Shown: positions 23,258 to 29,196 of the stretch, one piece after another | Layout: each line of letters opens with the position of its first letter | Position numbering within the stretch: position 1 is the stretch's first letter | From: Alphaproteobacteria bacterium | GTDB lineage: Bacteria; Pseudomonadota; Alphaproteobacteria; Bin95 | Reading direction: 5' to 3' | Assembly (NCBI GenBank): GCA_965205265.1 | Contig: CBDBGH010000003.1 | Span: 1,696,001 to 1,760,000, forward strand | Length of the DNA: 64,000 nucleotides | Translations under genes and position numbers: made by a program | Notes under the pieces: model-generated | What the model was told of the DNA's origin: nothing | What the model saw: the letters and a program-made list of their open reading frames with translations, nothing else | Databases searched by the model: none

Positions 23258-24865
23258 TCATCCGGCGTCCTTGGAGATGTTCCAGAAGAACGGCACCGGC
23301 GAGACCAGCACGCCCTTCAGGCCCTTTCGCCAGGCAACCGGCTGGAACCACTGGCCGTAGTTCACATAGGGCACCAGATGGCTGAAGAGGCGGCCCTGCA
23401 GCTTGTCGATGATCGCCTTCTTGCCCATCGGATCCGCTTCCCGGGCGAACATGTCGCGCAGTTCCTCGGTCTCCGCATCCGTCGGCCAGCCGAACCAGGC
23501 CCTTTCGACGCCGCCGCCCGACACGCCGATATTGGCGATGGGCGAGGTGGCGTCAGCGCCGGTCGCATAGGTGTGGAAGATGTTCCAGCCGCCGTCGGCC
23601 GGGCTCTTCTTCTCTGCGCGCCGGGAGGTCAGCGTGGACCAGTCCATCGCCTGCACTTCCACATCCATGCCGATGTCGCGCAGCACCTGCGCCGTCACCA
23701 GCGCGGCGTTGTTCAGCACCGGAATGTCGGTGGACTGCATCAGGATGATCTTCTCGCCCTTGTAACCGGCCTCCGCCAGAAGCTGCTTGGCCTTCTCCGG
23801 GTCATGCGACTGGAGCGCCTCGACGCCGACATCGGACTCGTTCGGCGTGCCGCAGATGAAATAGGCGGCGCATTCCTTGTAGAGCTTCGGATCTCCGACG
23901 ATGGCCTGCAGATACACCTCCTGATCGACGGCGTAGAGCAGCGCCTGGCGCGCCTTCGGGTTGTCGAAGGGTGGGTGCAGGTGGTTCGGCCGGAGCCAGC
24001 CCTGTGTGCCCAGCGGGTCGATCACGGCGAGCTCGATATTGTCGTTCTGCTCCAGCAGCGGCACCATATCGACGGCCGGCGTCTCCCAGAGATCGACCTC
24101 CCCGTTGATGAGCGCGTTCATCGCCGTCGCCGGATCGGGAATGTAGATCCACTCGACCCGGTCGAAATGCACGACCTTGCCGCCGGCGGCGCCCGAAGCG
24201 GGCTCGCTGCGCGGCACATAGTCCTCGTTCTTGACATAGACGACCTTGGCGCCCGGCACCCACTCCTCCTTCACGAACCGGAACGGGCCGGAGCCGACCA
24301 CTTCCGGAACCTGCTGGTTCGGGTCGGTCTCGGCGTGCTCCTTCTTCATCATGAAGGGGGTGTTGGAGCTGATCTTGCCGATGGAATCGAGAACGAGGCC
24401 GTAAGGCTCGTTCAGCGTGAGCGTGAAGGTCTTGTCGTCGACCGCCTTCAACTCCTTGGTGAAGTCCATGAGCTTCTGGCCCATGCCGTCCTTCTGGCCC
24501 CAGCGCTTGATCGAAGCCACGCAGTCCTCGGCCTTCACCGGGTCGCCGTCATGCCATTTGAGGCCGTCGCGCAAGGTGAAGGTATAGACGAGGCCGTCAT
24601 CGCTGACGGAATGCTCGCCCACCATCTGCGGGTGGATGTTCAGCTTGTCGTCCTGGGCGAAAAGCGTGTCATACACCATGTAGCCGTGGTTGCGGGTGAT
24701 GTAGGCCGTGGTCCAGATCGGATCCAGGTTCTTCAGGTCGGCATGCGGCACGATGCGCAGCACCGACTCCGCCGATGCCGGCCCCATGCCGAGGCCGAGC
24801 GCCATCGGCGCCGCAGCCAGCGCGGCAAGCGCTGCGCGCCGCGTCGCGGTCAAAAATCGTGGCAT
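23258..24865 (-). CDS. Peptide/nickel family 5 ABC substrate-binding protein
   Basis: Signal peptide, LDPIWTTAYITRNHG, YTFTLRDGLKWHDG, GSGPF. Confidence 0.92.
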   Translation of the reverse strand: MPRFLTATRRAALAALAAAPMALGLGMGPASAESVLRIVPHADLKNLDPIWTTAYITRNHGYMVYDTLFAQDDKLNIHPQMVGEHSVSDDGLVYTFTLRDGLKWHDGDPVKAEDCVASIKRWGQKDGMGQKLMDFTKELKAVDDKTFTLTLNEPYGLVLDSIGKISSNTPFMMKKEHAETDPNQQVPEVVGSGPFRFVKEEWVPGAKVVYVKNEDYVPRSEPASGAAGGKVVHFDRVEWIYIPDPATAMNALINGEVDLWETPAVDMVPLLEQNDNIELAVIDPLGTQGWLRPNHLHPPFDNPKARQALLYAVDQEVYLQAIVGDPKLYKECAAYFICGTPNESDVGVEALQSHDPEKAKQLLAEAGYKGEKIILMQSTDIPVLNNAALVTAQVLRDIGMDVEVQAMDWSTLTSRRAEKKSPADGGWNIFHTYATGADATSPIANIGVSGGGVERAWFGWPTDAETEELRDMFAREADPMGKKAIIDKLQGRLFSHLVPYVNYGQWFQPVAWRKGLKGVLVSPVPFFWNISKDAG

Positions 24866-25046
24866 GTTCGCTTGTCCTCCTCTTGACTCCCGAATCGGCC
24901 GCACAGCGTCGCTGCCGAGCCGGCCGATCGGCAATGCAAGCACGGTTGCGCGCGCTTGTCACCTTCGCCGGCGGACACCTCGTAGGCGCAATGTCGCGGG
25001 CGGGCGACATTGCGCGACGCGGCGGCTTCTTTATGGTCCCCCGTCC

Positions 25047-26684
25047 ATGACCGACAGTTTCGACTATGTGATCGTCGGCTCGGGCACGGCCGGGTCCGTG
25101 CTGGCCGCGCGGCTGGCCGCAGGCGGCATCCATTCCGTCTGCGTGCTGGAGGCCGGGCCGCCGGACCGCCACCCTTTCATCCACATACCGGCCGGCTTCA
25201 TGAAGACGCTGACCGACCCGGCCGTGAACTGGCTCTATTCCACCGAGCCGAGCGAATGGACTGGCGGCCGGCGCATCCTTGCCGCGCGCGGCAAGACGCT
25301 CGGCGGCTCCAGTTCGATCAACGGCCACATCTACAATCGCGGCCAGCGGCTCGACTATGACGGCTGGGCGCAACTCGGCAACCGCGGCTGGGGCTATGCC
25401 GACGTGCTGCCCTATTTCAAGCGTAGCGAAAGGCGTGTCGGCGAGGGCGACGACACCTTCCGCGGCCGCGAAGGCAGCCTGGTCGTGACCGACAACCCCT
25501 ACCGCCACCCGCTCTGCGAGGCGTTCATCGAAGGCGCAGTCGGGCTCGGCATCCCCCGCAACCCGGACTACAACGGCGCCGACCAGGACGGCGTCGGCTA
25601 TTTCCAGCGCGCGATCCACAACGGCCGGCGGGTGAGCGCGGCGCGGGGCTTCCTGCATCCGGCCATGCGCAAGCGCGGCAACCTGCTGGACGTGCGCACC
25701 CGCGCCCATGCAACGCGCATCCTGTTCGAGGGCAAGCGCGCAGTGGGCGTGCGCTACCGCACGGACGGCAACCCCTATGAGGTGCGCGCGCGCCGCGAGG
25801 TCATCCTCTGCGGCGGCACGGTCAATTCGCCCCAATTGCTGCAGGTCTCCGGCGTCGGCCCGCCCGAATTGCTGGGCCGCTTCGGCATACCCGTGCTCCA
25901 TGCGCTGCCCGGCGTCGGCGAGAACCTGCACGACCACTACGCCGTTAGGATCGTCGCGCGGGTCAGGGACATGGAGACGATCAACCAGCGCGTCCGGGGG
26001 CCCGCCTTCCTGGCGGAAGCCGCCCGCTACTTCGCCGGCGGCCCGAGCGTGCTCGGACTCTCGCCGTCGCTCGTGCATGTGTTCTGGAAATCCGACCCGT
26101 CGCTCGACAAGGGCGACCTCCAGATGACCTTCACGCCCGCCAGCTACAAGGAAGGCGTGCAGGCCGCGCTCGACGACTATCCCGCCATGACGATCGCGCC
26201 CTGGCAGCAGCGGCCGGAAAGCCGGGGCCATATCCGCATTACCTCCGCCGACCCCCTGGCGCCGCCCGAAATCCAGCCCAACTACCTGGCGCACGAGATG
26301 GACCGGCAGGTGCTGCTGGCCGGCCTCCGCCTCGCGCGGCGCCTGCTGCGCACGCCGGAACTCGCGCCCTACAACGCCGGCGAGGAGTATCCGGGGGACG
26401 GGGTCGAGAGCGATGACGAGTGGCTCGATGTCGCCCGCCGGCGCGGCACGACCACCTTCCACCTGGTCGGGAGCTGCCATATGGGGCCGGAGGCGGACCC
26501 GCTCGCCGTCGTGGACGACCGGCTGCGGGTCCGCGGGCTGGACGGCCTCAGGGTCGCCGACGCCTCCATCGTCCCGCGCATGCCGTCGGCCAATACCAAC
26601 GCCGCCGCCTTCATGATCGCGGAGAAGGCGGCCGACATGATCCTCGACCGGCCGGCCCCCGCGCCCGTCACCCTTCCCGACTAG
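25047..26684 (+). CDS. GMC oxidoreductase (choline dehydrogenase-like)
   Basis: GSGTAG, GKTLGGSSSING, GVGENLHDH, GLRVADASIVP, NTNA. Confidence 0.92.
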   Translation: MTDSFDYVIVGSGTAGSVLAARLAAGGIHSVCVLEAGPPDRHPFIHIPAGFMKTLTDPAVNWLYSTEPSEWTGGRRILAARGKTLGGSSSINGHIYNRGQRLDYDGWAQLGNRGWGYADVLPYFKRSERRVGEGDDTFRGREGSLVVTDNPYRHPLCEAFIEGAVGLGIPRNPDYNGADQDGVGYFQRAIHNGRRVSAARGFLHPAMRKRGNLLDVRTRAHATRILFEGKRAVGVRYRTDGNPYEVRARREVILCGGTVNSPQLLQVSGVGPPELLGRFGIPVLHALPGVGENLHDHYAVRIVARVRDMETINQRVRGPAFLAEAARYFAGGPSVLGLSPSLVHVFWKSDPSLDKGDLQMTFTPASYKEGVQAALDDYPAMTIAPWQQRPESRGHIRITSADPLAPPEIQPNYLAHEMDRQVLLAGLRLARRLLRTPELAPYNAGEEYPGDGVESDDEWLDVARRRGTTTFHLVGSCHMGPEADPLAVVDDRLRVRGLDGLRVADASIVPRMPSANTNAAAFMIAEKAADMILDRPAPAPVTLPD

Positions 26685-26702
26685 ACAGGACAAGCCCCGA
26701 CC

Positions 26703-28067
26703 GTGGCCGCAGCCGACCTCCTGCCGCTGTTCATGTTTGCGGCGCTCGCCGCCTTCCTGTTCACCGGATTCCCCGTAGCCTTCGGGCTCGCCGGCCTGAC
26801 GATCCTGTTCGGCATCGTCGGCAACCTGATGGGCGTGTTCCAGTACATCGAGTTCACCAACATGGTGTACCGCATCTGGGGCGGCGTCGCGGAGAACCTG
26901 GTGCTGACGGCCGTGCCGACCTTCGTCTTCATGGGCGTGATGATGGAGCGGAGCGGCATCGCGCAGGACCTGCTCTACTGCCTCCAGGTGCTGCTGAAGC
27001 GCGTTCCCGGCGGCCTCGCGCTCTCGGTCACCGTGATGGGCACCATCATGGCGGCGATGACCGGCATCATCGGCGCCTCCGTCACCTTGATGAGCGTGCT
27101 CGCCCTGCCCCACATGCTGAAGGCGAAATACGACCACGCGCTCGCCTGCGGCACGATCTGCGCCGCCGGCACGCTCGGCATCCTCATTCCACCTTCGATC
27201 CTGCTGGTCATCATGGGCGACCTGATGGCGGTCTCGGTCGGCAACCTCTTCCTGGCCGCCCTTTTCCCCGGCCTGCTGCTCTCCGGCCTCTATTTCGTCT
27301 ATATCTCGTCCTATTCGGCTATCCGCCCGCAGGTGGCGCCGCCCCTGGACGACCTGGATACGCCGCAGACGGTCCCCGCCTATGCGGGCATGCTGCTCAA
27401 GGGCTTCATCCCGCCGGCGGTACTCATCCTGATGATAAAGGTCGCGATCTTCGGCGGCTGGGCGACGCCGACCGAGGGCGGCGCGGTCGGCGCTTTCGGC
27501 GCAACCCTGCTCGCGCTTGCCAACGGGCGCCTCACGCTCGACCTGATGAAGGACTGCTGCGACCGCACGGCGCTCACCGTCGCGATGATCTTCTTCGTCT
27601 TCGTCGGCGCCACCGGCTTCTCCTACGTCTTCCGCTCGCTCGGCGGCGACGAGGTGGTGGACCATCTCATCCTCTCGGTCGGGCTGGGGAACTGGGGCCT
27701 GCTGATCGTGCTCATGGCGATCGTGTTCGTGCTGGGCTTCTTCCTTGACTGGGTCGAGATCACGCTGATCGTGCTGCCGGTGTTCCTGCCCATCGTCGAC
27801 ATGCTGACCTTCGGCGCGCACGTGCCGGACCACGAGGTCGTTTACTGGTTCGCCATCCTGATTGCGGTCAATCTCCAGACCTCCTTCCTGACGCCCCCCT
27901 TCGGCTTTGCGCTCTTCTACATGAAGGGCGTGGCGCCGCCCGAGGTGAAGCTGACGGCGATCTACCGGGGCATCGTGCCCTTCGTGATCCTGCAGGTGAT
28001 CGGCCTCGCGACCGTGATCGCATGGCCCGATATCGCGCTCTGGCTGCCCCGCCAATTGTTGGACTGA
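26703..28067 (+). CDS. TRAP transporter large permease (DctM)
   Basis: [28 protein letters not shown]. Confidence 0.9.
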
Positions 28068-28107
28068 CCGCTTGCCCCCGCCGGCCCGTTCGGGCGACAC
28101 TGGAGCC

Positions 28108-29196
28108 ATGAACGACGCTCCGGACTCCGGCGAACCCGGCGGCGGACCGGCGGTCCGCCCGGAATGGGAGGCCACGGCGCCGACCCGCCGGGAGACGGTG
28201 CCAGCGCTTGAGGAAATTCTGGGTAAAGAGTTCAAGGTGCTGGACCCCGGCCCCAAACACGGTCCCGGCCCCCACCCCAGCCCCGGCTTTGTGCGCGTCG
28301 TGGACTATATGGGGGGCGATGACGCCATCGTGCAGGCCGCGCGCGTCTCCTACGGCAAAGGAACCAAGCGCCGTTCGACCGACGCCGCGCTTATCCGCTA
28401 CCTGCTGCGCCACCGGCACACTACGCCCTTCGAGATGTGCGAGATCAAGCTGCACATCAAGCTGCCGATCTTCGTCGCCCGGCAATGGATCCGCCACCGC
28501 ACAGCAAATGTGAATGAATACTCAGCCAGATATTCGAAGATGGACCCGGAGTATTACATTCCGGAGCCCGAACGCCTGAAATCCGTGCTGGACGAGCAAA
28601 AGCGGAGCCGCCGTGAGCGAGAAGCTCAACTGGACCTGTTCGCGCCGCCGCGCCAACAGCCGGCCCTGTCGCTGACGGCCCAGTCAACTTCCAACAAGCA
28701 GGGCCGGGAAGGCCAGCTGACCGATGCCGAGGTCCACGATTCCCTTTCGCGGCTCAACTGGGTGTCCACCCGCGCCTACGGTGTTTACCGCAACTTGCTG
28801 AACGAAGACGAAGACGGCGCAAAGATACGGGAGGATCGGGCAGGCATCGCGCGCGAACTCGCCCGGTCCGTCCTGCCGGTCAACTATTACACCCAGTTCT
28901 ACTGGAAGTGCGACCTTCACAACCTGATGCATTTCCTTTCGCTCCGCGCCGACAGCCACGCGCAATATGAAATCCGCGCCTATGCCGACCTCATTCTCGA
29001 CGAGATCGTGAAGCGCTGGGTGCCGGTGACATACCAGGCCTTTCAGGACTATGTGCATCGTGCGGAGTTTCTTTCGGCCGGTGCTCTCGCAGTTGTGCGG
29101 CGCAAGTTGGCGGACGAACAGGTCACACAGGACAACAGCGGCCTCTCCCCGCGCGAGTGGGACGAACTGGAGGCCATTCTGAACAGGAAGCCGTAG
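28108..29196 (+). CDS. thyX: FAD-dependent thymidylate synthase with two insertions
   Basis: [28 protein letters not shown] (RHRx7S motif), ARELAR, HAQYEIR. Confidence 0.95.

Follow-up and report, generated by a model that had tools for sequence, protein, structure and literature searches.

A ThyX thymidylate synthase with a conserved insert that carries a peptide matching the beta-clamp-binding consensus in an alphaproteobacterial lineage

The physical coupling of dNTP synthesis to replication forks is an old and unresolved question, and the thyX gene described here raises it in a specific form: does this thymidylate synthase dock on the beta sliding clamp (DnaN) through a peptide of its own? 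The gene lies in an alphaproteobacterial contig, within the window, by which we mean the whole stretch of 64,000 nucleotides that was analysed. An earlier note, made from the letters of this stretch, had drawn attention to the pentapeptide QLDLF inside an insertion of the protein and had proposed that the enzyme may thereby be brought to the clamp.

The longest thyX open reading frame runs from 28072 to 29196 on the plus strand, with a TTG at 28072 as its first in-frame start. The true start is likely the ATG at 28108 (M13 in the numbering used throughout), because conservation of the M13 column reaches at least 90% in alignment A1 (115 of 121 sequences, six short, partial or redundant ones having been omitted, with weighted frequencies) and because the closest homologue is 362 aa long; starting at the TTG would add 12 residues (28072-28107) that are absent from homologues. 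The gene, encoding an FAD-dependent thymidylate synthase, is thus placed at 28108..29196 (+) on the basis of the reading frame and its translation, Pfam, NCBIfam and Foldseek, and has a GC3 of 0.78. Upstream, a DctM transporter gene ends at 28067, the thyX ATG following 41 nt later. Long antisense frames also lie opposite real genes, such as the frame of 1195 aa at 24669-28256 on the minus strand, which spans the DctM gene; frames of this kind are common artefacts in DNA with 68% G+C and are not genes.

The protein belongs to the ThyX family. Pfam PF02511 (Thy1) matches it with an E-value of 4.9e-55 (186.7 bits against a cut-off of 24.8) and the NCBIfam equivalog TIGR02170 with 198.9 bits (cut-off 87.9), while its AlphaFold2 model, built with 150 diverse sequences (mean pLDDT 88.3), finds 6j61 (Thermus) and Thermotoga ThyX TM0449 (1o26) as its best Foldseek matches, with E-values of about 1e-22 and target-normalised TM-scores of 0.8-0.9 against solved ThyX structures. 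The signature stretch R141-S155 (28492..28536, +), delimited by conservation and by the Thermotoga alignment, is aligned with RHRIASYNELSGRYS of Thermotoga ThyX; among the 150 diverse ThyX sequences its residues R141, S151 and R153 are invariant, and H142, R143, N148, Y154 and S155 are at least 90% conserved. The pattern RHRxxSxNxxSxR, with a catalytic-site Ser and Arg, which we take to be the ThyX signature, is matched except for its first Ser, which is replaced by Asn in the ThyX of the window. A conserved loop, QSTSNKQGR (Q204-R212; 28681..28707, +), was recognised by conservation directly 3' of the insert and is probably functional, as suggested by its columns: Q204, N208, Q210 and G211 are at least 90% conserved among the 150 diverse sequences, and Q204, S205, Q210, G211 and R212 are invariant in alignment A1. 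A second extra segment, E245-R256 (28804..28839, +), shows up as a 12-residue gap in the alignment with the Thermus enzyme 6j61 and is common in the wider ThyX subfamily, the A3 consensus retaining its columns. The protein therefore shares domain, signature residues and fold with canonical ThyX (FDTS) enzymes such as Thermotoga TM0449 and Thermus 6j61, from which it differs by a 32-residue insert and a longer N-terminus; it is most likely a catalytically ordinary ThyX apart from the added insert module.

The genome, at 98.98% completeness, yielded no ThyA, and ThyX is the cell's only thymidylate synthase type, present in two copies. Since ThyA is absent, ThyX is predicted to be functional in converting dUMP to dTMP. 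The second thyX copy (P0038, 71% identity) lies outside the window at G000:C3:5267334-5268305 on the minus strand (locus L159, G000:C3:5267034-5268806) and has an insert of its own with the motif QPDLF, so that both copies of the genome are insert-bearing. About 21 kb from it there is a second NrdJ-like ribonucleotide reductase (C3:5244415-5246553), and a block of DNA-precursor genes around the second thyX may have been duplicated or acquired.

The insert itself could be delimited precisely. The earlier note had claimed a 32-residue insertion at 28579..28674, and both the translation and the alignment with 6j61 bear this out: residues 169-202 remain unmatched in the Thermus enzyme, residue 168 pairing with chain residue 109 and residue 203 with chain residue 110, and the insert is real for this reason. 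As annotated, it comprises K170-L201 (28579..28674, +), has no counterpart in 6j61 or 1kq4, and is located between the YIPxPE strand and the QSxxNKQGR loop. Its N-terminal half belongs to a charged helix predicted at residues 166-184 (28567..28623, +) by DSSP in both AlphaFold2 models. The helix is followed by QLDLF, Q186-F190 (28627..28641, +), identical to the beta-clamp-binding consensus pentapeptide and read from the translation exactly where the note had put it. A variable return linker rich in Glu, Ala and Pro, A191-A203 (28642..28680, +), then leads back into the core. This linker was defined by its length and column information: in 112 unique inserts it is between 10 and 35 residues long (13-14 in 100 of them), half of its composition (50%) is E, A and P together, and column information stays at 1.0-2.1 bits over residues 191-200 before climbing over L201-A203. 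A search for DNA repeats around the insert that might betray a duplication or mobile origin returned only two short pairs, consistent with chance.

How much can be read into five residues depends on what the clamp recognises. The canonical clamp motif is Q-phi-x-[L/M]-[F/L], and QLDLF is its strongest-binding consensus peptide; the LF moiety suffices for binding to the clamp, where it anchors subsite I; at position 3 there is a mild preference for Asp, and the Gln is important and not essential, as exemplified by AMSLF of the delta subunit and QPLLI of MutL, according to a 2024 review (PMC11139829). From the same source, the MutL peptide lies in a structured region and has a Pro at position 2 that excludes its Gln from subsite II, and the delta and MutL motifs are ordered or hidden until the clamp is bound (PMC11139829). 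Residues 186-190 of the window's ThyX conform to the canonical definition. Taken alone, such a motif is weak evidence: in about 1.28 million residues of coding-like open reading frames of its own genome, 1.1 occurrences of QL[SD]LF are expected and two are observed, one in ThyX and the other in an ABC ATPase, where it probably arose by chance. For a given 32-residue stretch, the chance of QL[SD]LF is roughly 2e-5. What lifts the ThyX motif above chance is its conservation across homologues. When the search was widened to QL[SDN]LF or Q[MP]DLF over 3405 coding-like reading frames of the genome, it returned five: the two ThyX copies, the ABC ATPase and a plasmid replication initiator present in two identical copies.

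Within the insert, the information is concentrated at the end of the motif. In alignment A1 the weighted conservation of D188 (0.83), L189 (0.93) and F190 (0.91), corresponding to 3.2-3.9 bits, forms the peak of the insert, most other insert columns carrying 1-2 bits; L169 (0.97) and R181 (0.96) match the motif in their conservation. At position 186, M (0.47) and Q (0.35) prevail, and position 187 is D, P or L. The core [DNSTQGKE][LMF][FL] is kept in all 135 of 135 insert-bearing rows, including clade members that fall to about 56-60% identity, and L169 and L189 are spaced by 13-28 residues, most often by 20-21 (83 of the 112 unique inserts). The expectation voiced in the earlier note, that QLxLF would be kept while the rest of the insert drifts, therefore holds for the D-L-F part and less so for positions 1 and 2, whose conservation is partial: Gln occupies position 1 in 36 of the 112 unique inserts; the canonical form Q-phi-x-[LM]-[FL] is found in 23 of them and MDDLF, not QLDLF, is the commonest pentapeptide. 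MDDLF occurs 29 times, ahead of WPDLF (14), QLDLF and QPDLF (7 each), QLNLF and QHDLF (5 each) and QMDLF (4). Among the inserts whose N-side is shortened or Gly-rich (spacing 13-16), 9 of 17 have QL[NSQK]LF. Motifs of the Q type are present in a Dongiaceae-like clade (QHDLF, QPDLF, QADMF) and in the main insert clade (QYGLF, QLKLF, QLQLF and QLNLL, besides the genus of the window itself), thus in lineages on both sides of the insert-bearing clade, and MDDLF is confined to clades nested inside the main one. The canonical regular expression, when applied to 150 diverse ThyX representatives, matched once, at QLNLL in a 62-residue insert at the same site (P0124).

The insert is lineage-specific and old. 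From recall, the earlier note had described alphaproteobacterial ThyX as reading straight through this site, which proved correct: 91 of 109 ThyX reading frames from relatives and named alphaproteobacterial genomes have the form YxPxPEH-LAAQSxxNxQGR without an insert. The insert is likewise absent from 80 of the 88 50%-identity cluster representatives having both anchors (the other 62 of the 150 representatives, without recognisable anchors, were left unscored). It is present in 119 of the 120 best matches (56-92% identity) from a search of 5.8 billion proteins, P0037 being the exception. A scan of genome contigs, whose best 80 hits did not include the genus of the window, returned mostly insert-less ThyX that served as a comparison set. 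In the order of the window, sampled by 37 genomes from three genera, its own genus bears the insert in 16 of 17 genomes (G000, the genome of the window, included; G013 is without it), and none of the 19 matched genomes from the two sister genera has it; outside the genus it was seen in one Rhodospirillales MAG (L062) and in two from Dongiaceae (L066, L076). An allele of thyX that naturally lacks the insert thus exists inside the insert-bearing clade of the same genus, in G013 (L017, G013:C1:992095-993042) and in P0037, and the module can be regarded as an add-on to the ThyX fold because these alleles do without it.

Trees were built after removing the insert columns. FastTree, run on 227 rows (the query, 109 locus reading frames and 117 database proteins of at least 300 aa), required three state changes. 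IQ-TREE was run on a subset of 65 rows, comprising 7 Dongiaceae-like rows, 29 hand-picked rows of the main insert clade (two insert-less ones among them) and 29 insert-less rows (26 random plus named ones). In this tree one branch parts all 29 insert-less rows from the 34 insert-bearing ones and the nested insert-less pair P0037/L017, with an SH-aLRT support of 96.5 in a quick run and support values of 89/95.6 in a careful one. The IQ-TREE result, in an unrooted tree, is compatible with a single origin of the insert and one later nested loss. A double independent origin, which the three changes of FastTree might evoke, is not claimed, as IQ-TREE groups all bearers beside one branch. By its spread over this clade the insert is old and not a private oddity. 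The ThyX of the genus is not sister to that of its sister genera in the IQ-TREE phylogeny, and for this reason thyX has probably moved horizontally.

The earlier note had described such motifs as normally lying on flexible loops or tails; for this insert, the better AlphaFold2 model does not support a flexible loop. AlphaFold2 with the deep alignment of 150 diverse sequences models the insert as a helix (166-184) followed by coil, with block means of pLDDT of 88, 89, 83 and 81, and the insert is on this model predicted to be ordered. A run with a shallow alignment of 115 close homologues gave a mean pLDDT of 64.6 and values below 50 for residues 184-213; disorder of the insert was not concluded from it, invariant catalytic stretches having also scored below 50. 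The ordered prediction makes a structural hairpin a serious rival to clamp binding.

Other proteins of the lineage offer a comparison for the motif. At the C-terminus of DinB, all 17 of 17 genomes of the genus (L160-L176) have ADPP[ED]LF plus four residues, with no Gln and a Pro at position 2; in the genome of the window, QTNLF lies near residue 938 of DnaE and QFVLHL at the N-terminal end of Hda. By their position, the peptides of DnaE, Hda and DinB would be functional clamp motifs. The plasmid replication initiator (PF10134, E 6.5e-57, RepA family) carries HQPDLFV near residue 30, N-terminal to its domain; ThyX copy 2 contains this heptapeptide too, and in the initiator it is likely a clamp-binding motif. 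The two identical initiator copies (L157, G000:C2:8761-10083, and C2:37060-38382) are 28.3 kb apart on the 43.2-kb contig C2, which suggests a concatemer or an assembly repeat. Plasmid RepA relatives in 41 genomes yielded a single weak match outside the own genome, too few to judge the conservation of the motif. At the level of sequence, the dialect of the ThyX motif is common to DinB of the genus (DPPELF) and plasmid RepA (HQPDLFV).

The presumed receptor is also in place. Counted along an alignment to 1jqj, all 12 residues that form subsite I in E. coli beta, and 7 of the 8 that form subsite II, are retained in the cognate DnaN (P0122): R153, L156, T177, G179, H180, R181, L182, P249, R253, V254, V367 and M369 correspond to R152, L155, T172, G174, H175, R176, L177, P242, R246, V247, V360 and M362 of the E. 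coli protein, and N327, Y330, P370, M371 and R372 are also kept, V344 of subsite II being replaced by Ala. As far as residue identities tell, its peptide pocket is intact. Tmk and three ribonucleotide reductases of the genome have no comparable motif, and a whole clamp-tethered pathway to dTTP is therefore unsupported. We also noted dozens of identical 338-aa/340-aa AAA+ (IstB-like) reading frames at about 35 sites of contig C3 (such as 1051491-1051862 and 2223656-2224027), presumably copies of the helper gene of an insertion sequence that has multiplied strongly.

What, then, is the x-x-D-L-F peptide, QLDLF in this protein, for? That it is an internal beta-clamp-binding motif of ThyX is the explanation we place first, holding it to be evenly balanced between right and wrong. 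In its favour, the motif is identical to the strongest-binding consensus given in the review (PMC11139829), the conservation of the insert peaks at D-L-F with the core in every row, and this core survives changes of spacing on the N-side (13-28) as well as in the linker on the C-side (10-35). Canonical QL[NSQK]LF is found in 9 of the 17 inserts with a truncated or Gly-rich N-side, Q-type motifs occur on both sides of the tree, and in a separate 50%-cluster representative the site is occupied by QLNLL, the sole match of the regular expression among the 150 diverse representatives thus falling inside such an insert. The motif shares its dialect with DinB and RepA of a lineage in which DnaE has QTNLF and Hda QFVLHL, the DnaN pocket is intact, ThyA is missing while both ThyX copies bear inserts, and the insert-less allele of G013/P0037 marks the module as an add-on. 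Against it, Gln is present in 36 of 112 inserts and the canonical form in 23, and the largest group, MDDLF, having Met and Asp at positions 1 and 2, fits no described clamp motif; the confident, ordered model (pLDDT 81-89) means that Leu and Phe could simply be packed; L169 and R181 are conserved like the motif, as expected of one small folded unit of helix and peptide; the insert adjoins a conserved, probably functional loop, which makes a role in cis plausible; and Tmk and the ribonucleotide reductases carry nothing comparable.

Most of these objections speak for a hairpin with a structural or regulatory role, a small folded unit of helix and loop whose Leu189 and Phe190 would pack on the hydrophobic base of the helix (L169, V172, L173) or on the body of ThyX, the likeness to a clamp motif being coincidental. 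R181 and D188 would perhaps form a salt bridge, and the hairpin could act on the adjacent QSxxNKQGR loop or on the tetramer by stabilising or gating it. The deep-alignment model with its helix and coil, L169 and R181 being as conserved as D-L-F, the spacing of 20-21 residues in 83 of 112 unique inserts, the missing Gln at position 1 in most inserts and the location immediately 5' of the conserved loop all agree with such a hairpin, which we consider a real possibility, if a rather doubtful one. It accounts less well for a core that is kept with helices 5-8 residues shorter or Gly-rich, or with spacings up to 28, for Gln and an aliphatic residue at positions 1-2 far above the expectation from composition in several separate lineages, and for an insert that G013 and P0037 can dispense with. 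Clamp binding and hairpin are not mutually exclusive, because the delta and MutL motifs are themselves ordered or hidden before the clamp binds, as the review reports (PMC11139829). It is unlikely that x-x-D-L-F serves as a short linear motif recognised by some partner besides DnaN, such as a replication, repair or one-carbon enzyme or a protease adaptor controlling the level of ThyX; family-wide only D-L-F is conserved (plus Gly-Met in the MDDLF group), which is less than a full clamp motif, but the canonical forms and the match to the DinB and RepA motifs of the lineage point to DnaN. To our knowledge no other bacterial hub reads Q-x-x-L-F or D-L-F. A neutral insert with a chance motif is highly improbable: pentapeptides can arise at random, as QLDLF in the ABC ATPase illustrates, but a core retained in 135 of 135 rows across a clade reaching down to about 56-60% identity while the flanks drift effectively refutes this explanation.

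If the peptide does bind the clamp, ThyX would have gained a surface-loop module ahead of the QSxxNKQGR loop, made of the charged helix, the x-x-D-L-F peptide and the variable Glu/Ala/Pro linker. Leu189 and Phe190 would plug into subsite I of DnaN, which is hydrophobic, and subsite II would take up Gln186 and Leu187 in the proteins that have them; tetrameric ThyX would in this way be brought to clamps that are loaded at replication and repair forks or remain behind them. ThyX is a slow enzyme, and one candidate outcome is a local supply of dTMP by this sole type of thymidylate synthase, another being a replication-coupled control of ThyX. The accessibility of the peptide, its binding to DnaN and the effect of such binding are points that we infer. 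The fuller proposal, that the ThyX of this clade is a genuine sliding-clamp client, docking through an internal QLDLF-type peptide at replication and repair sites, we hold a shade more tentatively than an evenly balanced view.

Several known systems provide points of comparison. Like the clamp clients Pol III alpha (QADMF), MutL (QPLLI), delta (AMSLF) and Pol V (QLNLF), ThyX presents a pentapeptide ending in Leu-Phe or similar in a loop of a folded protein; the window's ThyX has the exact consensus QLDLF, and those of relatives have QLNLF, QLSLF, QADMF and QPDLF. As in MutL and delta (PMC11139829), the region around the motif may be an ordered one. As a candidate client, ThyX would differ from these proteins in being an enzyme of nucleotide biosynthesis and not a polymerase, repair or initiation factor, and in lacking the Gln in most members of the insert family. 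The clamp partners tabulated in the 2024 review are without exception DNA-handling proteins, and thymidylate goes unmentioned in it (PMC11139829). In eukaryotes, a replitase or nuclear complex for de novo dTMP synthesis (SHMT1-TYMS-DHFR) has been described, and an interaction of SHMT1 with PCNA reported (PMC2688753). The shared idea is a thymidylate synthesis tethered to the sliding clamp at forks; the contact is made there through SHMT1 and PCNA and not by thymidylate synthase, and the proteins and motifs are unrelated. For E. coli, the idea of a replication hyperstructure has been put forward and is debated (PMC2773459).

Plasmid replication offers a nearer case, within this very genome. The RepA-family protein of contig C2 has HQPDLFV before its domain, as in ThyX copy 2, and its clamp binding we likewise infer; it belongs to another protein family with another role. 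TrfA of RK2 is a plasmid replication initiator with an N-terminal clamp motif. The earlier note knew of no described clamp-binding ThyX, and the literature searched, which left most subscription journals out of reach, agrees with it, no description of a clamp-binding thymidylate synthase having been found there. A clamp-binding ThyX is thus apparently undescribed so far, and the reading is plausible.

Should it be true, ThyX would represent a new class of carrier of clamp-client motifs, an enzyme of nucleotide biosynthesis, and would connect nucleotide synthesis physically to the bacterial replisome for the first time, with either a clamp-tethered supply of dTMP or a replication-coupled control of dTMP synthesis in bacteria. 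It would also broaden the rules for clamp clients and the motif variants to be sought (xPDLF, MDDLF). If the motif is instead structural, the family is a cautionary case of a perfect consensus peptide within a folded insert. A conserved, consensus-grade clamp motif in a thymidylate synthase makes the question of fork coupling directly testable, and the genus provides a ready-made system with one peptide, one pocket, an insert-less allele and a second copy with a variant motif.
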